Positions 51,566 through 64,000 are shown, counted from the stretch's first letter. The stretch is DNA of 64,000 nt from Candidatus Omnitrophota bacterium (GCA_025453395.1 JALOQK010000003.1:82711-146710); one strand, 5' to 3'. A program made the numbers and translations. Notes: generated by a model not told the origin, from the sequence alone.

Positions 51566-52228
51566 TTAGCTGGGGCTAAAGATGTAGCCTTTTGCATAAA
51601 CACTTCTTATATACCTGTTTCCGATCTTTTTGCGCAAGGCATTGATGTGCACGTCTACTGTGCGGGTGTCTTGCGCGCTGTGGTATCCCCAAACCTGCTG
51701 CAAAAGTTCTTCCCGGGAAACCACCTTGTCTTTATTGGAGATTAAAAAGCGCAGGATCTTCAATTCCAATAGTGAAAGCGCAAGCTTCCTTTTTTTCTTC
51801 ACAGCAAGGCATCTTCGAAAGTCTATTTCCAGCGCGCCATCTTTATACTCTACCGCAGTAGAAGCTTCTTTGCGCCGCAGAAGGGCTTTTATTCTGGCTT
51901 TTAACTCCTCCAGGCTGAAGGGTTTAGTGATATAATCATCACTTCCCATTTCAAGCCCCTTGACTTTATCCGAGATCTGATCTTTTGCCGTGAGCATAAT
52001 AATACAAGCGTCAATGCCGTTTTCTTTTAGTTTCCGGCATAACAAGAAGCCGTCTGCGTCAGGCAGGATTATATCCAGCAAAATAAGATCCACTTCTTGG
52101 GATTGGGCTATATTTAAGCCTTCTTTTCCGGTTGAAGCGCTTAATACAGTATATTCTTTTTCCAGCTCGTCTTTTAATCCCAGCATAATCGCCGGCTCGT
52201 CTTCTATTATCAATATCTTGTTAGGCAT
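51566..52228 (-). CDS. OmpR/PhoB-family response regulator
   Basis: Receiver 'ILIIEDEP...DLILLDIILPDADG...IIMLTAK' plus winged-helix C-terminus. Confidence 0.85.
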   Translation of the reverse strand: MPNKILIIEDEPAIMLGLKDELEKEYTVLSASTGKEGLNIAQSQEVDLILLDIILPDADGFLLCRKLKENGIDACIIMLTAKDQISDKVKGLEMGSDDYITKPFSLEELKARIKALLRRKEASTAVEYKDGALEIDFRRCLAVKKKRKLALSLLELKILRFLISNKDKVVSREELLQQVWGYHSAQDTRTVDVHINALRKKIGNRYIRSVYAKGYIFSPS

Positions 52229-52242
52229 AAACTTTCAATTTT

Positions 52243-53187
52243 TTAGGGTATGGTTATGGTGAATTTTACCCCTCGCGGGATTTGATTTTCTACCGTAATT
52301 TCTCCATGGTTTTTTTCTATGAAATTCTTGGCTAAGGTTAACCCCAGGCCGGTGCCTTTGCCTTTGTGGTAAAACGGGTCAAATATTTTCTTCTGCTCAT
52401 CTTTTGGTATTCCATCTCCCTGGTCGATAATCTCTATTGTTGCGCCCTGTCCTTGGGCGGACAAATTAATAGTTATTTTACCCGATGCGGGTGAAAATTT
52501 CAGGGCGTTGTCCAATATATTGATAAATGCGCGGGTAAATGATTCTTTGTCCAGCTTGATCTTATGCCCTATGTCTTTGAAGTTTATTTCCAGGCGGCAA
52601 TCAGGGCGGATTAAAGACGCGGGGTATTCCTGGATAGCTTTTTGCGTTAACTGGCCAATGTCTGTTTCTTCAAAACACAAATTTTCTTTTTTGTTTTCCG
52701 CCTTAGAAAAGTCCAAGATATTGCTGATTAGGCTGCTCAAATAATAGCTTTGCTGCAGGATGTGCAAGTGGTATTGGCTTTGTTTATCCGCTTCTTGAGG
52801 ATTATTCACCAGCCTTTCTGCTAAAAGCCGTATTGCGGTTAAGGGTGTTTTTAATTCGTGGGAAACGGTGGAAACGAAGTTGTTTTTCAGCTTTGATATT
52901 TCCATCTGCCTTTGGATGTCTTGAGAGCTTAAATAGCTTCCCGTGGCCATGATAAGGACCAGGGCAAAAATGATGAGCGAGAAAGCCAGGGTGCTTATTT
53001 TGGTATAGGAACCGATATTTTCTCTTATAAAAAACGCTTTTCCGGACTCGTTTAGGACATAGGAAATTATCTGGTATTGACGGGTGAGCATCCAGAGGGC
53101 GATTACCCCCAGGATGACGCTTGAGGCAACTACAATATAAGCGTAAATTTCTATGCGTTTATTGTTTATAAAGTCAACTTTGCCCAT
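52243..53187 (-). CDS. Sensor histidine kinase (HisKA + HATPase_c), membrane-anchored
   Basis: H-box 'VSHELKTPLTAI', N-box 'ILDNALKFSP', G-boxes 'DQGDGIP', 'GTGLGLTLAK'. Confidence 0.85.
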   Translation of the reverse strand: MGKVDFINNKRIEIYAYIVVASSVILGVIALWMLTRQYQIISYVLNESGKAFFIRENIGSYTKISTLAFSLIIFALVLIMATGSYLSSQDIQRQMEISKLKNNFVSTVSHELKTPLTAIRLLAERLVNNPQEADKQSQYHLHILQQSYYLSSLISNILDFSKAENKKENLCFEETDIGQLTQKAIQEYPASLIRPDCRLEINFKDIGHKIKLDKESFTRAFINILDNALKFSPASGKITINLSAQGQGATIEIIDQGDGIPKDEQKKIFDPFYHKGKGTGLGLTLAKNFIEKNHGEITVENQIPRGVKFTITIP

Positions 53188-53317
53188 TAAAGTAAATCTA
53201 ACACAGCAGCCCTAAGATGTAAAGGGAATTTAGGATTGTAAGGGAAATGTAAAATCAGCTTAAAAGGTATTGCAATTGTCTTTGGAAAGAGGTATATTTT
53301 GTATAAGGAGAATTATC

Positions 53318-56300
53318 ATGGAAAAGATTACCGGGAATAAAGGGATGGTTCTTATTGTTTCTCTTTTCTTGGCCATTGTAATCGCTACCATGGCTGGCAT
53401 ATTATATTTTCGCGCGGTTAACGAATCGCGTTTGTCAGTAATAAGCGACGCGGCGCTTCAGGCTTTTTACGAAGCAGAGGCGGGACTGGCTTTTGCTTAT
53501 GCCGCGGAAAAAAAGAGCAATTTTACCTGGTTTACCCACGCAGATAAGATTACAAAGGCAAGCGCAGTTTCGGTTCCTTCTGGCGTTCCGGGCGCAATTG
53601 ATAACTCAAGCGGTTGTTATGTTGTATCAGGGCGTAATTTTAAAGTCAAAACTTTCCCAGAGAAAAAAGGTACTGTTGAAACCGGAATTGTGGTTGTGCT
53701 GTCACAGGCTACTATTAACGGGGTTACCCGTACTTTAGAGCATCGCATTGGCCAGAAATCCGCTTATCAATATTTTTTCTTCTTTCCTGAAGACCACACC
53801 TTTGATACCGCCACTTACGACGGACGCAACTTTGGCGGGCTTCATGTGAATGGCGATATCAACCTTATCAACCATCCGACCTTTGCTTTCTTAACTGAAT
53901 TAAGCAGCGGTTCAAATACTTCCCATAAAGGCTATATCCGAAGGCCGCTTTTAGAGGCCTTTACAGCTTTAAGCGGCAACAAGGATTATAATATTTCAGC
54001 TTCTAGCGTCCAAGGGCTTCCATGGCAGCTTTATACAAATATTAACTATCGCACTTCAAACGGAGATATCGGTTCAGGAACATATACTACTTTTAAGATT
54101 GGCGATATCAACAGCCCCGCAACAATAAATATCCCAGAATATATGGGCGGGCAGTGGTCATTTGATAAATATACCAAGGCGGGTTCGCCCACAACTTATA
54201 ATATTACGGAAACCTCTTTGAAGAATGCCGGATTGCGAGAGATTACTTCTTCCGCAGGAGATGTTTCCTTGTTTGATAATAACAAATCTATCAATATCAA
54301 CTTTGGGGGTTCACCAGAAAGCCTTACTGAGAAAGAAATGTTTAAGAGGATATACAACCTTCCGGATGATCAGCAAACCAGTTATTGGAGCCAATATTGG
54401 GATCAGTGGAAAGTCAATCATAATTCCGATTATTCAGCTTATCATACTTCTGGAGTGTTAACAGCGGGAGATGATTGGAAAAGAAGATTATTTTGGGCAA
54501 CTTATGACTGGAAAGATTACAATTCTGACGGTATCCCTTACGGAATAAACCGGGAGTGGTGGGAAGATTTAAGTTATGGAGACGATTATTACGATTATGG
54601 CCCTAATGGCACATCCCCGGCCTGCGTGGTAGACCACGACACAGGATTGTCATTAGATAAATATTTCTTGAACACAGAAGAACAGGGTACGCAATGGAAA
54701 AATTTGTTAGATGCAAACAACCTTGATGAGGCCGCAGATAATAAAACCCTTGTTTTAGACAGAAGCCAGGGCGGCAAAGAAATCAATGCCGGGGATATCA
54801 TTAGCAATTATGATACTTCAAGTTATAGTGTTTTAGAAGGCCAAGCGCGCAACAGCGGGATTTATATGGGGGTTAAGACTGATCAGGCCTATAAGGATTG
54901 GCAGATTTTGGCTGTGACTGCCAGCATGAAGGCAAATTCTGCGCTTGATAAAGCGAATGCCAAATTTTCTGAATGCACGGTAAAATATAATCAGACCGCA
55001 TGTTCTTCAACTTCCGGAGGCTCAACATCAGCAGAAGCCGTTGCTTGTTGGTCAGATTATAGCGGCCTATACCAAAAATATACTCAAGCTTATGGCGAAT
55101 ACACGCAAGTTATGCAGGATAAGCCTCCTACTGTTTGGTGGGAAGGTAAAAATTCAAATCTTCTTAAGGATTGCGTTTCTGAAACTCCGTTTTATAACGC
55201 GCAAAACCCTGCCCGGGGCAGCGATGGGAAATATTCTCCCAGCCATATCCTTACCATTGATTTAGCTAAGCTTAAAAGCAATATTGACCAGAAAGGTTCG
55301 GGTTTTAACGGGATCATCTATATAGATTTGGACGCTTACCAATGGCAAGAGAATACTGTGGATGACGGAACTAAAGTTTCAGATGAAAAGAGCGCTATTG
55401 GAGTAATGTTTGTTAATGGAGAGCGCCTTCCGGATCAGGGTTTAAGCATAGTTACTAAGCATAATGTTTACGTTAAGGGGGATTTTAACCTTGACCCGGA
55501 TGGAGATTCTAGCCGTAACCGCGCTGCCGACCCCTCAAATGTTTTAAATACCGTTGCGAATAATAAAGGCCTTGATGTTGATGATTTTAAATGGCGCCCA
55601 GCGGAAATAATCACCTACAGGCAGGTATACTTTCTATCGAATGATTTCAATCTGCCAAAAACCATGCCTTTATTGGATACACAATATGGGCAATTTTACG
55701 ATGAATATTATAATAAGACTCGAGCGGATGTGGTTACGCATCCTTTATATGGCGCACCGGATACTGCCACAAGCGCTTCTGCCAGTTGGATGCCTGCGTA
55801 TAATAGCTCGGATTCTTCATGGGGGAAGATAAATGATTGGTTTTCTCTTACCGGGATAACCCCCCCAGCTTCATGGGATGTAAACTGGCTTGATGGCAAT
55901 CAGCTGAACCAGATGGATTCCACCCCGGATTTGTTAACTGGCGTAAACGGGAAACAATACCCCAAATGGGATAATTACAGCTGGAGTGATTCTTATGTCT
56001 ATAAATTAGACGATGGCTCAGGCGGGACAACATATATCATGCGTCAGGATTTAAAGTATCAACTTTATAGCAAAGTACTGAGTGCCTATAGAAATCAATA
56101 CGCTTACAATGTTAGTAACTCGCCCGCGGCATACCAGATGGTTGATGTTGTGACCCGCCCGGAAAGCTATATTTACAATACGGCAGTGATTACTCCCTAT
56201 GCCCCAGAGGGGTATAGTTTAGAGCGCTGGAACAATAAGAATCGCGTGATTAACGGCGCGTTTATTCAGCTGCCTTCAGGTATGCAACTTCCCGTTCCCG

Positions 56301-56476
56301 TTGAATCTTATAAGGATACTGGTTCCGGAGCAATAAGGTTTAACCAGCCCAAGAAAACATTTAATTATGAGTCTCGCTTTGGTAAAAACGGGGATCCTTC
56401 TGATCAGCCCCACGCAAGGTTATTATTTGGCATGGATTCAACATGGAGGGAAATAAATAATGCCGCGTTTCAATAA
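53318..56476 (+). CDS. Giant PilX-N-domain minor-pilin-like protein (about 1050 aa), a putative pilus tip adhesin
   Basis: N-terminal 'KGMVLIVSLFLAIVIATMAGILYFRAVNESRLSVISDAALQAFYEAEAGLAFAYA' matches the PilX_N pattern (hydrophobic helix + 'QAFyaAEAGl'). The remainder is N/Y/W/D/S/T-rich with no TM. Confidence 0.55.
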   Translation: MEKITGNKGMVLIVSLFLAIVIATMAGILYFRAVNESRLSVISDAALQAFYEAEAGLAFAYAAEKKSNFTWFTHADKITKASAVSVPSGVPGAIDNSSGCYVVSGRNFKVKTFPEKKGTVETGIVVVLSQATINGVTRTLEHRIGQKSAYQYFFFFPEDHTFDTATYDGRNFGGLHVNGDINLINHPTFAFLTELSSGSNTSHKGYIRRPLLEAFTALSGNKDYNISASSVQGLPWQLYTNINYRTSNGDIGSGTYTTFKIGDINSPATINIPEYMGGQWSFDKYTKAGSPTTYNITETSLKNAGLREITSSAGDVSLFDNNKSININFGGSPESLTEKEMFKRIYNLPDDQQTSYWSQYWDQWKVNHNSDYSAYHTSGVLTAGDDWKRRLFWATYDWKDYNSDGIPYGINREWWEDLSYGDDYYDYGPNGTSPACVVDHDTGLSLDKYFLNTEEQGTQWKNLLDANNLDEAADNKTLVLDRSQGGKEINAGDIISNYDTSSYSVLEGQARNSGIYMGVKTDQAYKDWQILAVTASMKANSALDKANAKFSECTVKYNQTACSSTSGGSTSAEAVACWSDYSGLYQKYTQAYGEYTQVMQDKPPTVWWEGKNSNLLKDCVSETPFYNAQNPARGSDGKYSPSHILTIDLAKLKSNIDQKGSGFNGIIYIDLDAYQWQENTVDDGTKVSDEKSAIGVMFVNGERLPDQGLSIVTKHNVYVKGDFNLDPDGDSSRNRAADPSNVLNTVANNKGLDVDDFKWRPAEIITYRQVYFLSNDFNLPKTMPLLDTQYGQFYDEYYNKTRADVVTHPLYGAPDTATSASASWMPAYNSSDSSWGKINDWFSLTGITPPASWDVNWLDGNQLNQMDSTPDLLTGVNGKQYPKWDNYSWSDSYVYKLDDGSGGTTYIMRQDLKYQLYSKVLSAYRNQYAYNVSNSPAAYQMVDVVTRPESYIYNTAVITPYAPEGYSLERWNNKNRVINGAFIQLPSGMQLPVPVESYKDTGSGAIRFNQPKKTFNYESRFGKNGDPSDQPHARLLFGMDSTWREINNAAFQ

Positions 56477-56867
56477 GAATAAGGGTTTTAGTTTGATTGA
56501 AATCCTTGTTGCCTGCGTGATTATCGCGGCATCCGCAGGAGCTTTTATGCTGTCTTTAGGCCAGACAGCTAAGGCAACCGGAACATTTGATGATACCGAT
56601 ATAGCGCTTAATGCCGCCCAGTCTAAGATGGAAGAGGTCGGAAATGAAGATTTTAGCACCGATAATATAGCTAATATTATATCAGCATACAATAATAAAT
56701 ATTTCGCGGTATCCGGGCTTTCCGCGCCAAACAATTGGCCCAACCCAATACTTGTGACTATAAGCCAGATCAATAATGATTTATATGATGTTTTGGTTAA
56801 AGTAAGTTGGCAGGCCAGGGGAAGGACATATCTTAAGCAATTAAAAAGGACATTCGCTTTGAAATAA
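56460..56867 (+). CDS. Type IV pilin / pseudopilin with prepilin N-terminal cleavage-methylation motif
   Basis: 'NKGFSLIEILVACVIIAASAGAF' = G|FxLIE prepilin peptidase site plus hydrophobic helix. Confidence 0.75.
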   Translation: MPRFNKNKGFSLIEILVACVIIAASAGAFMLSLGQTAKATGTFDDTDIALNAAQSKMEEVGNEDFSTDNIANIISAYNNKYFAVSGLSAPNNWPNPILVTISQINNDLYDVLVKVSWQARGRTYLKQLKRTFALK

Positions 56868-56868
56868 T

Positions 56869-57486
56869 ATGAAGAATAAGGGGTTTACTTTAGTTGAAGT
56901 ATTTATTTCTGCGGGGATAATGTTATTGGTTGTTGGGACAGCCTATACTATTATCTTGACAGGAAATTTTTCTATGAACACGCAGGAAAACGAAATTAAT
57001 GCTCAAAATTCCGCGCAGCTTGCCTTATTTCAAATAGCCCAAGATTTACGCCTTGCAAGCGGAGTTAAGGTTTGGGTTTCTGACGGTTTTGGGACTACAC
57101 AGGGCACACCAGCAGTCGCCTATAAAGTAGTAAACTTTCAAATACCTGTGGGCAGCTTTGAGTCTGCGATAGCTCTGGATAGCAATAATTACATTTCTTG
57201 GGGCAGTGAAAGGCTAAGCTTAAGCGATGATGGCACGGGTAATTATATCGCTTATAGCCTCGATAACCAGGGCCAGATCATAAGGACAGTTTATAGCGCG
57301 TCTGGCACAGTCTATACCACTAAAAAGACAAGGATTGTGGCAAGGAACATTTCTAGCCTGAATTTCACGCGCAGCTTATCAGAAAATTTACTGCAGATTC
57401 AAATTACTTCTAATATTCTAGCCAGCAAGCAGTCCGCGCCCATACAAAAGACGGTGTCCACGACAGTATTATTAAGGAACGGTTAA
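56869..57486 (+). CDS. Minor pilin (PilW/GspJ-like) with prepilin N-terminal motif
   Basis: 'NKGFTLVEVFISAGIMLLVVGTAY' prepilin motif. 'LALFQIAQDLRLAS' resembles PilW-type minor pilins. Confidence 0.7.
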   Translation: MKNKGFTLVEVFISAGIMLLVVGTAYTIILTGNFSMNTQENEINAQNSAQLALFQIAQDLRLASGVKVWVSDGFGTTQGTPAVAYKVVNFQIPVGSFESAIALDSNNYISWGSERLSLSDDGTGNYIAYSLDNQGQIIRTVYSASGTVYTTKKTRIVARNISSLNFTRSLSENLLQIQITSNILASKQSAPIQKTVSTTVLLRNG

Positions 57487-57531: not shown

Positions 57532-57560
57532 TTGACAGGGTTGTTTTGTCTTTATATAAT
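57532..57560 (+). promoter_or_regulatory. Consensus sigma70 promoter TTGACA-N17-TATAAT in front of the biosynthetic locus
   Basis: Read directly. TTGACA at 57532-57537, 17-nt spacer, TATAAT at 57555-57560. RBS 'gaaggaag' precedes the ATG at 57614. Confidence 0.6.
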
Positions 57561-57613: not shown

Positions 57614-57892
57614 ATGGATTGGGATATAGAGGTAAAAGAGCGCCTAAAGCAGATGACTGCGAAGATTCCGGTTTTTCACCGGCACATTACCCAAAACGCG
57701 GTTACGCTTAAGGCGGAAGAAAACGCCCGCCAAAGAAACTGCCCCAAGGTGGAAGAAGTGGATGTCTTGGGCGCTTTTTTTTCGGATGTGCCTTCGCCAT
57801 TCTACAGTATGATGGTCAGGCTATTAGAGCAAAGCGGTTTTGACTATAAAAAATACGGTTTTCCTAAAACGAAACCCAAACTTATGGAGTGA
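57614..57892 (+). CDS. PCP_red-domain small protein (the domain is otherwise C-terminal in protochlorophyllide reductase subunit B; standalone form of unknown function)
   Basis: 'WDIEVKERLKQMTAKIPVFHRHITQNAVTLKAEENARQRN' matches the PCP_red pattern W..eA...l..iP.fvR..v....E..Ar. Confidence 0.5.
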   Translation: MDWDIEVKERLKQMTAKIPVFHRHITQNAVTLKAEENARQRNCPKVEEVDVLGAFFSDVPSPFYSMMVRLLEQSGFDYKKYGFPKTKPKLME

Positions 57893-58019: not shown

Positions 58020-59030
58020 ATGAAAATTGGGGTTATTGGCGCCGGGGCAATAGGCAACCTTGTTGCCGCGTATCTTAAATTAAAAGAAGAAGATGTTTTT
58101 CTTGCTGGCACAGCATCGTCTATTGATGCCATAAAGAAAAATGGCCTTGATGTTTCTGGTGTGCGCGGAGATTTTCATCTGTCTTTAGATTGCGGATTAT
58201 TGCTTAATGAAAAAAAAGACCTTGTAATACTGGCGGCCAAGACACAGGATTTAAAAGAAGCCCTTAACGCCAACTTAGATTTTATTAAAGGCGCTTTATT
58301 GGTTACTACGCAAAACGGCGTTGCCGCAGATAGTATTGCTGCTGGTTTTGCCCCCAAGGAAAATATTATCTCAAGCATTGTTATGTTTGGCGCTACTTAT
58401 TTAGAGCCGGGAAAAATAGTGCATAATTTTGAAGGAAGCTGGATTTTAGCAGGCGCCTTTGGCAAAAATAATAAAAAAACCCCGCAGGTATCAGAGGTTT
58501 TAAATAAAATATTCCCTTGTTTAGTAAGTGAAGATATCCGGGGGATGAAGTATTTAAAGATCTTTGTTAACGCCAACAATTGTATCCCGGCGGTATTAGG
58601 CCAGAGCATGCAGGAAGCGTTCTCTGACCTAGAAATAAGCAGAATCAGTATTGCTATTTGGAAAGAGGCCATGGATGTGGTTTCGCGCTCTAATATAAAA
58701 CTTGTTTCTCTGCCGGATTTTCCTCTTGAAAGGCTAGTGCGTATGACCCAAATGCCGATTTCCGAAGCCGCGCGCATTTATTCCGGGATCATGGCGTCTT
58801 TAAGCAAACAGCCCGTTTATGGCTCGATATTGCAGAGTATTAAACGTAAACGCGCTTCCGAAATAGATTACATTAATGGCGAATTCGTTTCTCTGGCAAA
58901 AGTCCATAATTCACAGGCGCCGCTTAATGAAATGCTGGTTAGTATGGTGCACAGGGTAGAAAAAACAGGGGATTTCTTTTCAAAAGAAGAGCTTTTGAGT
59001 AAAACCAAAGATTTAGTGGAGAAGATATGA
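58020..59030 (+). CDS. Ketopantoate-reductase-family (ApbA/PanE-like) NAD(P)H-dependent reductase
   Basis: 'MKIGVIGAGAIGNLVAAYL' Rossmann motif. ApbA_C-like C-terminal half ('EIDYINGEFVSLAK'). Confidence 0.65.
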   Translation: MKIGVIGAGAIGNLVAAYLKLKEEDVFLAGTASSIDAIKKNGLDVSGVRGDFHLSLDCGLLLNEKKDLVILAAKTQDLKEALNANLDFIKGALLVTTQNGVAADSIAAGFAPKENIISSIVMFGATYLEPGKIVHNFEGSWILAGAFGKNNKKTPQVSEVLNKIFPCLVSEDIRGMKYLKIFVNANNCIPAVLGQSMQEAFSDLEISRISIAIWKEAMDVVSRSNIKLVSLPDFPLERLVRMTQMPISEAARIYSGIMASLSKQPVYGSILQSIKRKRASEIDYINGEFVSLAKVHNSQAPLNEMLVSMVHRVEKTGDFFSKEELLSKTKDLVEKI

Positions 59031-59620
59031 GCGAAGTCAATACACCGTTCCCAAAACTAAGGTTAACCGTTAGCGCTGTTTATGGTGAATGTTACCATGG
59101 CTACAAAAAGGGCGACGAAATAATTTTAGAGGATTTTACCCACCCGCCAAAGCATTTTTGTCTGGGCCTGGCGCATGCCCTTTTTCCGGTAATTTACGCG
59201 TTAAGTTTCGGAGCAAGATTTCCCTTTCGTGACAATCAAAGGTCTTTATTGGTGACCTGCCCTGATGGTGGTAAGCTTGAATTTAAAGCTGAAATCTTAA
59301 ACAAAGATGGCAAGATAGAAGAAATGCCTAAGGATCCGAATTTCAAAGGGCCAAATCCAAAGAAGATGATAATTGAGGTGGTTGAGGCAAAAGGAAAATG
59401 TACTTTTGGTTATAAAGTAGGCGATAAATGGGAGACTTGTGGCTTGAAGTGTATTCCCGGATTTTGCGGAGCAGCATTTCATACTGCCTTTCCGGCATTG
59501 TTCGCGCTTAATTTTGGCGCCAAGTTCTTTTTTATGCAGGATCCAAATTCTATTGATACTGTAACTTGTCCCGATGGCGGGAACATTATATTTAAGGTAA
59601 AAAGGATTGAAGAGAAATAA
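59027..59620 (+). CDS. Tandem-duplicated TIGR04076-like Cys-rich protein (two copies of about 95 aa, each ending in CPDGG)
   Basis: Internal repeat: 'CYHGYKKGDEI...HPPKHFCLGLAHALFPVIYALSFGARFPF...LLVTCPDGGKLEFK' versus 'CTFGYKVGDKW...CIPGFCGAAFHTAFPALFALNFGAKFFF...DTVTCPDGGNIIFK'. Confidence 0.5.
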   Translation: MSEVNTPFPKLRLTVSAVYGECYHGYKKGDEIILEDFTHPPKHFCLGLAHALFPVIYALSFGARFPFRDNQRSLLVTCPDGGKLEFKAEILNKDGKIEEMPKDPNFKGPNPKKMIIEVVEAKGKCTFGYKVGDKWETCGLKCIPGFCGAAFHTAFPALFALNFGAKFFFMQDPNSIDTVTCPDGGNIIFKVKRIEEK

Positions 59621-59622
59621 TT

Positions 59623-60885
59623 ATGAATAAAAAACGCGTTGTGATTACAGGTTTAGGGGTTATATCCCCCAATGGCATTGGAAAAGATAATGTCTGGCAG
59701 GCGATGGTAAATGGAAAGTCCGCGGTGCGTAGGGTGGATAGTTTTGATGTTTCGGTTTTTAACACCAAGATTGCCGCCGAGGTTAGAGATTTTGATCCTT
59801 TTAAATTGGGCCTAACCCATGACGAGGCCATGCGTATGGACCGCTATGTGCAGTTTGGGGTTGTGGCAGCTGATATGGCGATAAAGGATAGTAAATTAGA
59901 TTTTTCTAAAGTAAACCTAGAGCGCGTGGGGGTGTGCCTTGCCAATGCCATCTGCGGCACAAAATATATGGAAGAAGAATTCGCCCTTGTTACTGATGAC
60001 GGGAGAAATCCCATTGATCCTTTAAAGGTGCGCCCTGATTTGTATGATGCCGCGATGTTTAATACTCCCTCCATAGAGATTTCCGCGCGTTATAAATTAA
60101 AAGGTTTCTGCAACACTCTTTCTACCGGTTGCACCGCCGGGACAGACTCGCTTGGATTCGGTTTAGAGGCCATTCAGGACGCAGAACAGGATATTATGGT
60201 CTGTGGCGCGGCCGAGGCGCCGATTACGCCGATTACCTTTGGGGCTTTTGACGTGGTCAATGTCTTGTCTGTGCATAATGATATTCCGGAACAGGCCTCC
60301 AGGCCGTTTGATAAGAAACGTAACGGCTTTGTGATTTCCGAGGGGGCAGGGATACTTATCTTGGAAGAATTAAGCCACGCCTTAAAAAGAAACGCGCATA
60401 TTTACGCGGAGGTATCGGGTTTTGGCACAAGCTGTAACGCCTTTCATATGACTGACCTGCCTTCTGACGGAACAGCTATGGCAAATTGTATTAATCTTGC
60501 CCTTGCCGATGCTTCTATGAAACCGCAGGAGATCGATTACATAAATGCCCATGGCTCTTCCACGCGCATGAACGATATCTTTGAGACTGCGGCCTATAAA
60601 ATGTCATTTGGGGATTACGCCTATAAATTGCCGGCAAGTTCCTTAAAATCCATGATCGGCCACCCGTTAGCTGCGGCAAACGCCATAGAGTTAGTGGTTT
60701 GTTGTTTTATTTTTAAGAATAATATTCTTCCTCCGACAATAAATCAAGAGGAGCGCGACCCTTTATGCGACTTGGATTATGTTTCAAACGTGGCACGGGA
60801 AAAGAAAGTAAATACAATATTAAAGACTTCAAGCGGTTTTTCAGGGATACATTCGGCCTTAATTGTGAAGAGGTTCAAAGAATAA
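59623..60885 (+). CDS. Beta-ketoacyl-ACP synthase (KAS I/II / type-II PKS KS-alpha-like), catalytically complete
   Basis: 'RVVITGLGVISPNG'. Active-site Cys in 'LSTGCTAGTDSL'. 'NAHGSST' His and 'MIGHPLAAANAIE' His are both present. Confidence 0.8.
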   Translation: MNKKRVVITGLGVISPNGIGKDNVWQAMVNGKSAVRRVDSFDVSVFNTKIAAEVRDFDPFKLGLTHDEAMRMDRYVQFGVVAADMAIKDSKLDFSKVNLERVGVCLANAICGTKYMEEEFALVTDDGRNPIDPLKVRPDLYDAAMFNTPSIEISARYKLKGFCNTLSTGCTAGTDSLGFGLEAIQDAEQDIMVCGAAEAPITPITFGAFDVVNVLSVHNDIPEQASRPFDKKRNGFVISEGAGILILEELSHALKRNAHIYAEVSGFGTSCNAFHMTDLPSDGTAMANCINLALADASMKPQEIDYINAHGSSTRMNDIFETAAYKMSFGDYAYKLPASSLKSMIGHPLAAANAIELVVCCFIFKNNILPPTINQEERDPLCDLDYVSNVAREKKVNTILKTSSGFSGIHSALIVKRFKE

Positions 60886-60886
60886 A

Positions 60887-62119
60887 ATGGATAGAAAAAT
60901 AGCAATCACAGGTTTAGGGATAGTCGCTCCTTCGGGAATAGGCCGTAGGCAGTTTTGGGCAAACATTAAATCCGCAAGAAGCTTTGTGAAAAAGATCAAC
61001 CGTTTTGACGCTTCTCGGTATCCATCGCATATTGCCGGGCAAATTGATGAGCTTGATAAGTATAGCAATGTCTCCGAGCGGCTTCTAAAAAAGATGGATG
61101 CCTTTTCCCACATGGCGTTGATTGCTTCGGAGCTGGCGTTAGAGGATGCCAAGATTGATATAAAAAAAGAAGACCCGAATTTAGTGGGGATATTTTTGGG
61201 CAATGCCATTGGCGGCTGGCTTTATGCCGAAACAGAATTAAGGGACCTGTATATTGAGGGAAGAGACGGAGTTTCTCCTTATATGGCCTCAGCCTGGTTT
61301 CCGGCTGCGCCGCAGGGCCAGGTGTCTATTTATTACGGGATAAAAGGTTTTTCTAAGACCGTTGTTTCTGACCGCGCCAGCTCCCTTGACGCGTTAGGCT
61401 ATGCCAGAAAAACCATTTCTAAGGGCAAGCTAAATATGATTTTAGCCGGAGGCATGGAAGCGCCGGTTACTCCTTATGCTCTTTTATGCTGCAATACTTA
61501 TGGCGGGCTTTCCGTAGAGAATGATAACCCGGAAACAGCCTATAGGCCATTTGATAAGAAAAGAAGCGGGTTTGTTATTGCTGAAGGAGCCGGGATAGTG
61601 GTGTTAGAGCCGCAGGAAAGAGCTTGCAAGCGAAATGCTCCGGTTCAGGCCTATATCTGTGGTTATGGCTCTACCTGCGACGCAGTAGACAGGATTAATC
61701 CGGATAAAGAAGGCAAAGAATTAGCCCGCGCGATTAACATGGCTTTATCTGATGCTAACTTTTCTCCTGAAGATATTGATTATATAAGCCTTGATGGCTT
61801 AGCAGTGGGCGTGTGGGATGATTCAGAAATTAAAGCCCTAAAAGAGGTTTTTGGAAAGCGTATGGAAAAAATACCAGTTAGCTGCCCCAAGAGCATGTTT
61901 GGAAACTTATTGGGCGCATCTGGGGCGGTGGACCTTATCGCAACAATTTTAGCTATGGAGAATAATTTGATTCCGCCTACCATAAATGTAGAATCTTGCG
62001 CCTATGAAGGGATAAACTTGATTTGCAATAAGGCAGTTCCAGCAGAAATAAAAAAAGCGCTTATTATCTCCCGCGGCAGAGGCGGGATAAATTCAGTCTT
62101 GGCAATAGAGAAAGCATAA
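60887..62119 (+). CDS. Ketosynthase-like protein lacking the Cys-His-His triad (KS-beta / chain-length-factor-like partner)
   Basis: Thiolase fold ('IAITGLGIVAPSG'). The Cys position reads 'VVSDRASSLDA' with no Cys. The 'HGT' position reads 'SLDGLAVG'. The 'GH' position reads 'FGNLLGASGA' (His to Asn). Confidence 0.7.
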   Translation: MDRKIAITGLGIVAPSGIGRRQFWANIKSARSFVKKINRFDASRYPSHIAGQIDELDKYSNVSERLLKKMDAFSHMALIASELALEDAKIDIKKEDPNLVGIFLGNAIGGWLYAETELRDLYIEGRDGVSPYMASAWFPAAPQGQVSIYYGIKGFSKTVVSDRASSLDALGYARKTISKGKLNMILAGGMEAPVTPYALLCCNTYGGLSVENDNPETAYRPFDKKRSGFVIAEGAGIVVLEPQERACKRNAPVQAYICGYGSTCDAVDRINPDKEGKELARAINMALSDANFSPEDIDYISLDGLAVGVWDDSEIKALKEVFGKRMEKIPVSCPKSMFGNLLGASGAVDLIATILAMENNLIPPTINVESCAYEGINLICNKAVPAEIKKALIISRGRGGINSVLAIEKA

Positions 62120-62227
62120 AGCGTAAAACGAAAAATTAAAAACCATAATTCAAAACTCAAAATTTTTAATTTTACACTATAGTTTTTCACTTTGAGCTTT
62201 TAGTTTTACGCTAAAAATGGAGGATTT

Positions 62228-63688
62228 ATGAAGATTTTATTTGTGATGCCTAAAGTTGGAGCCTGGGCTACCCACGGAATACATCGTTCGCCTAACCAGC
62301 TTTACGCGCATTGGGCCGCCTATGTCCGCGAAAGAGGCTATAAGGATATCGCGGTTATAGACGGAAAAGCTGATCAGACCCCTATGGATGAATTAGTCCA
62401 AAAGGTTAAAGTTATAAATCCCGATGTGGTAGTTATGGGTGAGCAGCTGCATGGTTATGGCGGATACGGGGTCCTAAGGCATTTTAAAGAAGCAGCGCAA
62501 AAGATTAAAAAGGCGCTTCCCAGGACTAAAATCATCTTAGGCGGCTTGTGGTATTCAGCTATGCCAGTACCCACCCTTGAGGAAAACCCGGAAGTAGATT
62601 TTATTGTCATGGGCGAAGAAGAATCCTTTGGCGATTTAATAGAAGCAATAGACAAAAAAACGGATCTTAAGAATGTAGGAGGGGTTACTTCTCGCGTAGA
62701 CGGACAAATTGTGATGGGGCCGCATAAACCATTAATGAAAGACTTGGATAAATTGCCTTTGCCGGCCTATGATTTGTTTCCCATGGATAAATATGTGGGC
62801 CACACTTATTGGAAACCATTTGTGGATATGGTAACAAGCCGCGGTTGTCCTTCGGCGTGCACATTTTGTTATGAGTGGGATCAATATGATCCTCGCCATC
62901 CTTCGGATTTTTTGACTTGGCGCGCCAAATCTCCAGAGAGAGTCATTGAGGAGATGGAAGTCCTGCAGAATAAATATGGGGTAAAGGTAGTAGTTATCCA
63001 GGATGATAATTTTAATGTCGACCCGGAACGGGTAAGAAAATTTTGTGAATTAAAAAAGAAGAAGAAAATTGATATTAAATGGGTTTCCTTAGGAAGAGCC
63101 ATTGACTGGGTGAATTGTGAACAAGTATTGCCATTAATGAAAGAAACCGGGCTTTTTATGGGAGTTTTCGGCATTGAGGTAACTACACAGTCAGAGCTTA
63201 AGAAAATCGCCAAGGGTATTACTCTTGATCAGATCCAGAAAACTATTGAGCTTTTGCGCAAACACGATATCGCCATTGTCGCGGATATTATGATGGGTTT
63301 TGATTATGACACCGAGCAGATTATTAAGAAGCGATTTGAATTTACCGATCAGGTTGATCCGGATATTTTGTGGGTGGGCTACGTAACCCCAGCTCCTAAT
63401 TCTCCGATGTGGAGGATCGCCATGAAGAAAAACTGGATCGATCCTAAGAAAGTTGATTTCAGCACTTGGGATTTTCTGCATCCGGTTATTCCTACGGATC
63501 ATCTTACTACCGAAGACTTAGGCAGGCTTGGCTCATGGTGCATGAGAGAATTTTTCTCTAAGCCCGGAAGAATACATAGGATCATGGAAAGCAATTTTGA
63601 TCCTCTAGCGAAGTTATGCTTTAAAGATGTTATGGATGGGATTAATAAATGGGAAAACGCAGCCACTAAAGGTGAAGTGCAGATATAG
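62228..63688 (+). CDS. Cobalamin-binding-domain radical SAM enzyme (class B radical SAM)
   Basis: N-terminal B12-binding-like Rossmann domain. 'SRGCPSACTFC' = CxxxCxxC radical SAM cluster motif. Confidence 0.8.
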   Translation: MKILFVMPKVGAWATHGIHRSPNQLYAHWAAYVRERGYKDIAVIDGKADQTPMDELVQKVKVINPDVVVMGEQLHGYGGYGVLRHFKEAAQKIKKALPRTKIILGGLWYSAMPVPTLEENPEVDFIVMGEEESFGDLIEAIDKKTDLKNVGGVTSRVDGQIVMGPHKPLMKDLDKLPLPAYDLFPMDKYVGHTYWKPFVDMVTSRGCPSACTFCYEWDQYDPRHPSDFLTWRAKSPERVIEEMEVLQNKYGVKVVVIQDDNFNVDPERVRKFCELKKKKKIDIKWVSLGRAIDWVNCEQVLPLMKETGLFMGVFGIEVTTQSELKKIAKGITLDQIQKTIELLRKHDIAIVADIMMGFDYDTEQIIKKRFEFTDQVDPDILWVGYVTPAPNSPMWRIAMKKNWIDPKKVDFSTWDFLHPVIPTDHLTTEDLGRLGSWCMREFFSKPGRIHRIMESNFDPLAKLCFKDVMDGINKWENAATKGEVQI

Positions 63689-63730
63689 CCCGCAGTTATG
63701 GACAGGTAAGAACTCAAAAAGAGGAGTAAG

Positions 63731-63961
63731 ATGGATACAAAAGCAAAAATAAAAGATACCTTTGTGAAGCTACTTAAAGTAAAGCCAGAAGAATTAAAAG
63801 ACGAAGTGTCTTTGGTAAATAGCATTGGAGTAGATTCAACCGAGATGGTGGAAGCCTTGATTGCCTTGGAGAAAGTCTTTAATACCAAGCTTGGGCCCAA
63901 AGAGATTACCAAGAATTCTACCATAAGCGAAATCGAAAAAGTTATTCAGTCCAAACTATAA
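63731..63961 (+). CDS. Acyl carrier protein
   Basis: 76 aa. 'IGVDSTEMVEALIALE' contains the phosphopantetheine-attachment DS motif in a helix II-like context. Confidence 0.7.
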   Translation: MDTKAKIKDTFVKLLKVKPEELKDEVSLVNSIGVDSTEMVEALIALEKVFNTKLGPKEITKNSTISEIEKVIQSKL

Positions 63962-64000
63962 GGCGGCATCTGATGCGCATAATTGACTTGAGCCTTCCCA

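Follow-up and report, generated by a model that had tools for sequence, protein, structure and literature searches.

The subject of this work is a 64-kb window, by which we mean the whole stretch of DNA that was analysed. It forms part of a 187-kb contig from the metagenome-assembled genome (MAG) of an uncultured Candidatus Omnitrophota bacterium (JGI 3300037461), and our interest lies in the three same-strand open reading frames (ORFs) that occupy positions 53318-57486 of it. We consider it likely that these genes encode the tip (initiation) complex of a type IVa pilus, in which the first product, a protein of 1052 amino acids (aa) entered at NCBI as hypothetical (locus tag MUF05_04725), would be the PilX/PilK/GspK-class cap. 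The case for such a cap draws on a leader without glutamate at position +5 (Glu5), a helix homologous to those of the neighbouring pilins, a third gene that resembles GspJ, a fold like that of ComZ and, in relatives, synteny with pilus machinery. A preliminary description of the region had envisaged a giant tip protein on a type IV pilus; what survives of that idea is a minor-pilin operon whose first gene encodes a very large protein of the PilX/GspK class, the probable cap, whereas the PilX_N score, the low complexity and the unusualness that were attached to it do not.

Gene products and the N-terminus of the large protein

The products of the operon are listed here, with a slash marking the predicted cleavage site of each leader.

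53318..56476, + strand: large putative apical minor pilin; 1052 aa, mature form ~116 kDa, pI 5.0
53318..53515, + strand: class-III-like signal peptide and pilin alpha1 helix; MEKITGNKG/MVLIV, no Glu at +5; helix over residues 5-66 in the model
56460..56867, + strand: small minor pilin, GspI/PilV-like by size, position and best match; 135 aa, MPRFNKNKG/FSLIE
56869..57486, + strand: minor pilin, GspJ/PilW-like; 205 aa, MKNKG/FTLVE

The large gene starts with the ATG at 53318, has AAGGAG ahead of that start and ends with a stop codon at 56476. Its 3' end is overlapped by the start of the 135-aa gene over 17 nucleotides (nt), and the 205-aa gene begins one base past the stop codon of the 135-aa gene, an overlapping and abutting arrangement which suggests translational coupling. 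The preliminary description had the coordinates and sizes of these ORFs and the two prepilin motifs (GFSLIE and GFTLVE) right, and its remark on the richness of the large protein in N, Y, W and D is borne out by measurement, since N, D, S, G, Y and W are all enriched (N 7.5%, D 7.5%, Y 6.5%, W 2.6%). It was equally right that no transmembrane segment lies beyond the N-terminal one: the single hydrophobic segment covers residues 4-35, and none follows residue 35 anywhere in the 1052 aa. Where it spoke of about 1000 aa of low-complexity sequence we find otherwise. The mean 12-residue entropy of the large protein is 2.99 bits, which is the same as for other proteins of the window (2.91-3.02), low-entropy stretches make up only 7 of its 1041 12-residue windows, it contains no tandem repeats and its model is confidently globular. 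A classification as a low-complexity adhesin was therefore rejected on the grounds of normal entropy and a confident fold model.

The 135-aa protein scores above the curated cut-offs of N_methyl (PF07963; 28.8 bits, cut-off 21.2) and of TIGR02532 (20.3 bits, cut-off 16.3), and its top NCBIfam match is gspI, at 5e-7 and under the gspI cut-off. The homology of its family is demonstrated for the N-terminal helix only, and its assignment to the I type is one of size, position and this sub-threshold match. The 205-aa protein is borderline for N_methyl (PF07963; 19.2 bits, 2 bits short of the 21.2 cut-off), and the profile of its family aligns with Escherichia coli GspJ over nearly its full length (hhalign 94.8%, 153 columns). 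Both keep Glu5 and, judged by their sequences, they are most likely ordinary minor pilins, the first of the GspI/PilV kind and the second of the GspJ/PilW kind.

The large protein differs from its two neighbours at that position. Of 110 aligned relatives, 101 have G at -1, 86 have K or R at -2 and 95 have L at +3, and the eight commonest residues at +5 do not include Glu. The family profile falls in register with the leader and alpha1N of Geobacter PilA (nnkG/vvLit vs NKKG/FTLIE), and a profile of residues 1-150 aligns with the two neighbouring pilin families with a probability of 91% in hhalign, over 61-72 columns. On the basis of these alignments, the N-terminus of the large protein is pilin-like, with a prepilin-type leader that lacks Glu5. 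Such a leader is a hallmark of the apical GspK/PilX subunit (bioRxiv 10.64898/2026.02.12.705559).

Predicted fold and comparison with known tip proteins

A model of the large protein made with AlphaFold2 from a 77-sequence alignment reached a predicted local distance difference test (pLDDT) score of 88.7 and a predicted template modelling (pTM) score of 0.84; it replaced an earlier 15-sequence model that was too weak for use (pLDDT 60.5). It is laid out as a helix (residues 5-66), three long strands (108-148), dozens of short strands to about residue 1017 and a final strand (1036-1046), and its parts beyond the helix are encoded as follows.

53639..53761, + strand: pilin-like sheet of three long beta-strands, residues 108-148, from DSSP of the model; strand 136-148 covaries with the C-terminal strand
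53771..56368, + strand: predicted beta-solenoid head, residues ~152-1017, with inserted subdomains; many short strands, rung motifs, rung covariation
56423..56455, + strand: conserved C-terminal beta-strand, residues 1036-1046, then ..NNAAF; 11-residue strand, block pLDDT 86-93

Whether the bulk of the protein might be a beta-propeller or a lectin had been asked at the outset, and structure prediction answers with a beta-solenoid that bears helical subdomains. These are a helical domain at residues 298-427 and a 90-aa helical hairpin at 521-612, the latter spanning 523-600 in the model and being nearly unique to the window protein. The same variable slot (alignment columns ~715-800) is taken up by dockerin-type repeats in the homologues P0012 and P0013 (Dockerin_1, best E 9.5e-5). 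Conserved rung motifs of the solenoid are rich in Asn and Gly (GxIHVNG[DN]I, LPxGGLTVVSPxNVYxKG[DN]YN and PAAIIT..VYTLS), and covariation scored as mutual information with average product correction (MI-APC) pairs rung with rung (710-763, 715-768, 169-669/959 and 956-1021), which indicates that a single solenoid runs through the whole insert. Conservation across the superfamily is concentrated in residues 1-300, 441-520, 621-680, 701-720, 761-780 and 941-1052, and the variable segments are 301-440, 521-612, 721-760 and 781-940. A PilY1-like calcium-binding loop at NLDPDGD (724-730) was considered and dropped because most of the superfamily lacks it.

The end of the protein carries a motif, PPGD[LF]..S.W.E[ILV]....F, that is kept across the superfamily despite the variable middle. 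In the covariation analysis the column pair 141-1044 ranks 4th of 122,342 long-range pairs, and the last 18 columns (1034-1051) place 12 of their 90 top-partner slots in strand 136-149, compared with 3.0 +/- 1.9 and a maximum of 8 in 398 control blocks; the alignment behind these figures has an effective number of sequences (Neff) of about 104 and shared ancestry among them, and the support it gives is limited accordingly. The register between the C-terminal strand and 136-149 is antiparallel. Taken together, the conservation and covariation of the C-terminus support a strand that returns to complete the N-terminal pilin sheet, and we propose that strand 1036-1046 of the model would do so in cis. 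Secondary structure and covariation would place the solenoid between the penultimate and the last strand of the pilin fold.

From these features we infer cleavage, complex formation, a location at the tip, two-component regulation and a ligand, which may be a cell-surface glycan, a prey or host cell, or DNA. Prepilin peptidase would cleave the large protein after Gly9, and its Glu5-less alpha1 helix (residues 10-66) would bundle with the helices of the other two pilins. The I-like and J-like pilins would pair and then recognise the folded sheet of the large subunit, whose three strands (108-148) would be completed in cis by its own C-terminal strand (1036-1046). The resulting trimer might prime polymerisation on the PilC platform and remain at the tip, where the decorated solenoid head of ~890 residues would sit on the pilus axis both as a cap or plug and as an exposed binding surface. 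The protein would thus have the architecture of ComZ and of cyanobacterial PilX, and in functional terms the roles of PilX and PilY1 would be united in one polypeptide.

In ComZ of Thermus thermophilus (PDB 6QVI) a beta-solenoid interrupts a GspK-like pilin domain after its penultimate strand and before its last; the protein, for which a location at the pilus tip has been proposed, has a GspI-like pilin as its binding partner (PMC6561018). The window protein resembles it in its proposed location and in the GspI-like pilin encoded alongside, and ComZ is the top Foldseek match in the PDB not only of the final model, for which three ComZ chains lead with E values of 2e-3 to 5e-3 and the next match stands at E 0.41, but also of the weaker first one. 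It differs in its length (1052 residues against ~500-550) and its extra helical subdomains, and there is no detectable sequence similarity: the close-family profile has 0 matches among PDB sequences, and the broad profile finds the Geobacter pilin leader only. Furthermore, ComZ is a DNA binder whereas the window protein is acidic, and comZ has no described two-component system of its own, whereas the window operon has a candidate one. In the beta-solenoid PilX of cyanobacteria the solenoid has been proposed as a tip plug that replaces PilY1, and one subfamily has especially long solenoids and extra domains (bioRxiv 10.64898/2026.02.12.705559). As in cyanobacteria, alternative minor-pilin sets appear to serve one machine here (related loci L005, L024 and L033). 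The Omnitrophota family differs, on a comparison made by description only, in its phylum, in its gene order of large, I-like and J-like with a divergent two-component system, and in that most of its members fail the PilX_N model. A solenoid insertion point before the last strand has been reported for both ComZ and cyanobacterial PilX (PMC6561018; bioRxiv 10.64898/2026.02.12.705559).

As in the GspK-GspI-GspJ and PilK/PilX-PilI-PilJ complexes, one Glu5-less apical subunit is accompanied by two Glu5-bearing partners, of which the J-like one matches GspJ. The apical subunit of such complexes needs a terminal beta-strand, which is provided in cis where PilC/PilY1 is absent; this 'beta-strand addition' licenses tip-complex assembly in GspK, in CpaL and in PilK with PilC/PilY1, and large insertions before the donor strand occur in systems without a tip adhesin (PMC13533445). 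The C-terminal motif and covariation of the window protein match the cis-strand mechanism of GspK, CpaL and ComZ (PMC13533445). Unlike GspK, which has ~330 aa and an alpha-domain inserted mid-sheet, it has no T2SSK match and its relatives lie beside machinery of the type IVa pilus kind. Like CpaL/TadG and PilY1/PilC/MshQ it is a large protein (600-1200 aa in these groups) associated, in our reading, with the tip, and it would share with CpaL a pilin-like N-terminal domain joined to its own C-terminal strand (PMC13533445) and with PilY1, to which it is similar in mass, a role as plug and adhesin. However, PilY1, PilC and MshQ are not pilins but separate proteins that have a beta-propeller and donate the strand in trans, and no such domain was detected in the window protein, whilst CpaL belongs to Tad systems and no Tad genes lie near the window module. 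Membership of PilY1/PilC was rejected given the lack of a model match, the pilin-like N-terminus and a model made of solenoid and helices; membership of GspK proper was rejected since no GspK model matched in the Pfam and NCBIfam scans. We regard GspK, CpaL/TadG and PilY1/MshQ as functional analogues, and ComZ and the solenoid-bearing cyanobacterial PilX as the closest kinds, with which the protein has in common a predicted pilin domain without Glu5, a solenoid probably inserted ahead of the last strand, the I/J trio and the lack of PilY1. What is new is an undescribed and larger family (~2x ComZ) of this already known solenoid PilX/ComZ design, with extra subdomains and a two-component system that has its own repeat. 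Within the library searched, we found no literature linking Omnitrophota with minor pilins, PilX or PilY1.

Distribution, probable regulation and variation of the module

A word-indexed search brought up 16 homologues, which are 940-1071 aa long and, where an organism name is given, come without exception from Omnitrophota. An exhaustive profile search extended the family to 1076 representative proteins at E<=1e-3 (102 at E<=1e-30), most of them of 700-1200 aa, with a common part made up of the first 200-300 positions and a few later stretches; by cluster taxonomy, one of ten distant relatives is named, and it is an Omnitrophota protein. One member (L009, CAZPSS010000042.1) lies on an 8-kb contig of a MAG labelled 'uncultured Planctomycetia', all other named sources being Omnitrophota, and this may be a mis-binned contig or a transfer.

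The trio is adjacent in every related locus with enough sequence, and it occurs in two gene orders. Type A loci have the arrangement of the window, with a response regulator and a histidine kinase on the opposite strand followed by the large, I-like and J-like genes. In type B loci the order is MshEN, PilC, I-like, J-like and one or two large genes, then PilM, PilQ, PilP, PilO and PilN on the other strand. The I-like gene follows the large gene in all type A loci, and the J-like gene is kept in all related loci. Type IVa pilus machinery adjoins the module in 8 of about 13 non-redundant loci with usable flanks (L006-8, L011, L015/24, L016, L017 on a 1.8-Mb chromosome, L018, L033 and L035), and the genes found around it are those for MshEN, PilT, PilB, PilC, PilN/O/P/Q, PilM and PilZ.

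Several pilus clusters hold two large tip pilins or two complete I/J/large sets (L024 7907-15243, L033 6655-14480, L005 6080-12871 and L018 5580-13619). Both arrangements, A and B, stand in one cluster in L024, and in L005 two large paralogues flank a single pilin pair. By analogy with what has been proposed for cyanobacteria, the duplicate modules suggest alternative tips for one machine. A gene for a retropepsin-like aspartic protease (Asp_protease_2 / gag-asp_proteas, 363 aa) also recurs in pilus clusters beside the pilin module:

L006 13921-15012, L008 13888-14979 and L011 19309-20067, - strand: retropepsin-like protease gene, not a Peptidase_A24 prepilin peptidase

The genes and sites upstream of the trio are given below, followed by the occurrences of the direct repeat in relatives.

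51566..52228, - strand: OmpR-type response regulator, 220 aa; Response_reg and Trans_reg_C
52243..53187, - strand: histidine kinase, 314 aa; HisKA and HATPase_c, two N-terminal hydrophobic segments, short loop
53195..53223, - strand: promoter-like site, kinase/regulator operon; TTTACA-17-TAGATT, TG ahead
53237..53254, + strand: direct repeat TGTAAGGGAAATGTAAAA, candidate OmpR-type regulator site; pattern TGTAA-N5/6-TGTAAAA
53270..53298, + strand: promoter-like site, pilin operon; TTGCAA-17-TATATT, immediately 3' of the repeat and 20 nt ahead of the ATG at 53318
Repeat in relatives: L005 5983-5999 (L005/10), L011 9443-9459, L012 9901-9917, L013 1820-1836
Repeat in relatives, continued: L014 1067-1083, L016 3263-3280, L017 9889-9905

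The kinase and regulator accompany the module in most relatives. An orthologue of the regulator with 54-75% identity holds the same divergent position in L005, L006-8, L011, L013, L016, L017 and L029-31, and the kinase is kept beside the pilin module in these same loci. The pattern TGTAA-N5/6-TGTAAAA occurs once in the 64-kb window, where 0.03 occurrences are expected. Seven distinct related loci, whose proteins are only 35-45% identical, carry one copy each, and in every case it lies a short way ahead of the large gene. Direct repeats spaced by one helical turn are the usual type of site for OmpR-family regulators, and the repeat is probably the operator of the divergent OmpR-type regulator. 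Transcription of the pilin operon probably starts at the sigma-70-like promoter at 53270-53298, and the divergent synteny and the conservation of the repeat point to an operon that is probably controlled, through this repeat, by the kinase and the OmpR-type regulator. In other loci a TTTACA/TGTAAA element and a AATCTAACACA element are again found next to the kinase gene, and both keep to the kinase side when the intergenic region is divided by an insertion. Two-component control of tip proteins has precedents, with FimS-AlgR controlling fimU-pilVWXY1E in Pseudomonas aeruginosa (PMC5979040) and HsfBA controlling the PilY1 sets of Myxococcus (PMC9109919). As in those systems, synteny and the repeat suggest that the pair in the window would be dedicated to a tip or minor-pilin operon, but its regulator is of the OmpR type, unlike the LytTR or NtrC regulators of FimS-AlgR and HsfBA.

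The exposed part of the large protein also varies between very close strains. Between L006 (10500-13000) and L008 the flanks are 100% identical, and the rate of synonymous substitution (dS) is 0 in pilC and in the genes of both small pilins. The large gene hardly changes over codons 1-200, with two amino-acid differences, and the part that differs is codons 200-960. From codon 200 to the end dS rises to 0.16-0.39, amino-acid identity falls to 70-90% and indels appear. The ratio of non-synonymous to synonymous rates (dN/dS) from codon 200 is 0.35, reaching 0.54-0.69 at codons 300-500. An exposed part that has diverged next to a pilin domain that has been kept, within identical flanks, points to allele replacement by recombination, which is the pattern that one would expect of a surface-exposed specificity determinant.

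Alternative readings and significance

Several results weigh against a pilus-tip cap. The preliminary description had seen a canonical PilX_N start in the large protein and had itself named failure of that model among the results that would refute its reading; PF14341 (PilX_N) is silent on the whole protein (E<=1), on residues 1-148 alone (E<=10) and on 15 close homologues (E<=1). Nor does the protein have any Pfam or NCBIfam match beyond noise, searched whole with both libraries and in four pieces with Pfam. T2SSK, the GspK model, which we take to be PF03934, and the PilY1/PilC models likewise match neither the large protein nor its 15 close homologues, and the PilY1/PilC-type search that had been proposed in advance therefore came back empty. 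The N-terminal profile reaches only a weak 25% in hhalign against E. coli GspK, and the structural match to ComZ is marginal (probability 0.44-0.63, TM score about 0.14). No GspH/FimU-type adapter pilin is present in the module, and a head of 116 kDa would still have to pass through the secretin. Finally, the window module is detached from pilus machinery, with no pilus ATPase, platform, secretin or prepilin peptidase in the 83 kb of contig read (30615-113830), which takes in 10 kb past either end of the window. To be set beside these points, PilX_N is the only recurrent Pfam family among 58 distant relatives (7 of 58, best E 2.5e-4), and one homologue, P0011, has been named 'PilX N-terminal domain-containing' by NCBI. 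Seymour et al. found type IVa pilus clusters in nearly all Omnitrophota genomes (PMC10066038), and for this reason the machinery is likely to be encoded elsewhere in the genome from which the window comes.

An architecture of the same tip-pilin kind could serve a different task, namely DNA capture by a competence pilus, by which small-genome Omnitrophota would scavenge DNA or nucleotides. DNA capture has been shown for ComZ-PilA2 in Thermus. Among solved structures ComZ comes closest to the large protein, and it is a DNA binder with a GspI-like pilin as its partner (PMC6561018). The cyanobacterial PilX/PilV proteins include a competence set, and the two alternative modules per pilus cluster seen in L005, L024 and L033 are reminiscent of the two specialised minor-pilin sets of cyanobacteria (bioRxiv 10.64898/2026.02.12.705559). 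We nevertheless think this function unlikely: the mature large protein is acidic (pI 5.0), no comEA, comEC or dprA lies nearby on the contig (30615-113830), replacement of alleles in the exposed part fits a variable ligand better than DNA, and the structural match to ComZ is too weak for function to be transferred from it.

It is less probable still that the trio forms the pseudopilus tip (GspK-I-J) of a type II secretion system, with no extended pilus. The best curated matches of the two small proteins are indeed gspI and GspJ, the module consists of three genes without PilY1, and GspK likewise lacks Glu5 and carries a large insertion (PMC13533445), but the neighbours of the relatives are a PilT-like ATPase, PilM, PilN/O/P and PilZ, with no GspC, GspL or GspM seen among them, the large protein has no T2SSK match, and a permanently attached head of 116 kDa would block the secretion piston. 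We regard as highly improbable that the large protein is a signal-anchored surface protein, or a polysaccharide-active beta-helix enzyme, that is unrelated to pili and stands beside the pilin genes by chance. Parallel beta-helices are common in lyases and depolymerases. The absence of a match to PilX_N or any other pilin family would suit this explanation, as would faint, non-significant BFVD matches to a parallel-beta-helix protein and an exopolysaccharide (EPS) depolymerase (E about 1). Against it, the gene is linked to both pilin genes in every locus with enough sequence and in two gene orders, the protein has a conserved G at -1 and a pilin-like helix, and its conserved extreme C-terminus covaries with the N-terminal sheet; an enzyme displayed at the tip would, in any case, still be compatible with a tip complex.

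With the three genes read as a pilus-tip complex, the family bears on how Omnitrophota meet other cells. These uncultured nanobacteria are thought to be attached to, or to prey on, larger cells, and no 'symbiosis' trait is more widespread among them than type IVa pili (PMC10066038). The operon had earlier been called unusual for this kind of organism, an opinion that does not stand given that type IVa pili are the Omnitrophota norm (PMC10066038), that the family has 1076 representative clusters and that solenoid PilX proteins are known from Thermus and cyanobacteria. The occupant of the Omnitrophota pilus tip is undescribed in the literature searched, and the large-pilin family is an obvious candidate on account of being phylum-wide (those 1076 representative clusters), unannotated in Pfam and NCBIfam, about twice the size of ComZ and swapped in its exposed part between near-identical strains. 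We consider it the best candidate for what Omnitrophota pili contact their partners with. It provides a concrete protein for studies of host range and attachment, and it extends to another phylum the emerging rule that lineages without PilY1 build the tip plug into PilX; for pilus specialists this will be expected variation and no surprise. A further proposal, which we put forward tentatively and hold to be more doubtful than the tip complex itself, is that the solenoid head is the host or prey recognition determinant of these ultra-small bacteria, possibly cleaving surface polysaccharides. It would act as PilX plus PilY1 in a single chain at the tip, its exposed part would be recombined to switch specificity, its expression would be set by an envelope-sensing two-component system, and the dual modules would be alternative tips.

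A perfect sigma-70 consensus (TTGACA-17-TATAAT) at 57532-57560 precedes an ORF of 92 aa at 57614-57892, which has weak DUF2621 and PCP_red matches only; given this promoter-like site, the ORF appears to be a transcription unit separate from the pilin operon. From 58020 to 64000 in the window, and on to about position 12314 of L020, follows a cluster that resembles a type II polyketide or unusual lipid pathway, with an ApbA-like reductase, two tandem ketoacyl-synthase genes, a B12-binding radical SAM enzyme, an acyl carrier protein, a cyclase, a Polyketide_cyc2 protein and a short-chain reductase. To the left of the window, L021 76-5955 holds a V/A-type ATPase operon (A, B and D subunits, a 585-aa unknown protein and the c subunit); it lies 50 kb from the pilin module, and the Omnitrophota literature ties unusual ATPases to pilus loci.

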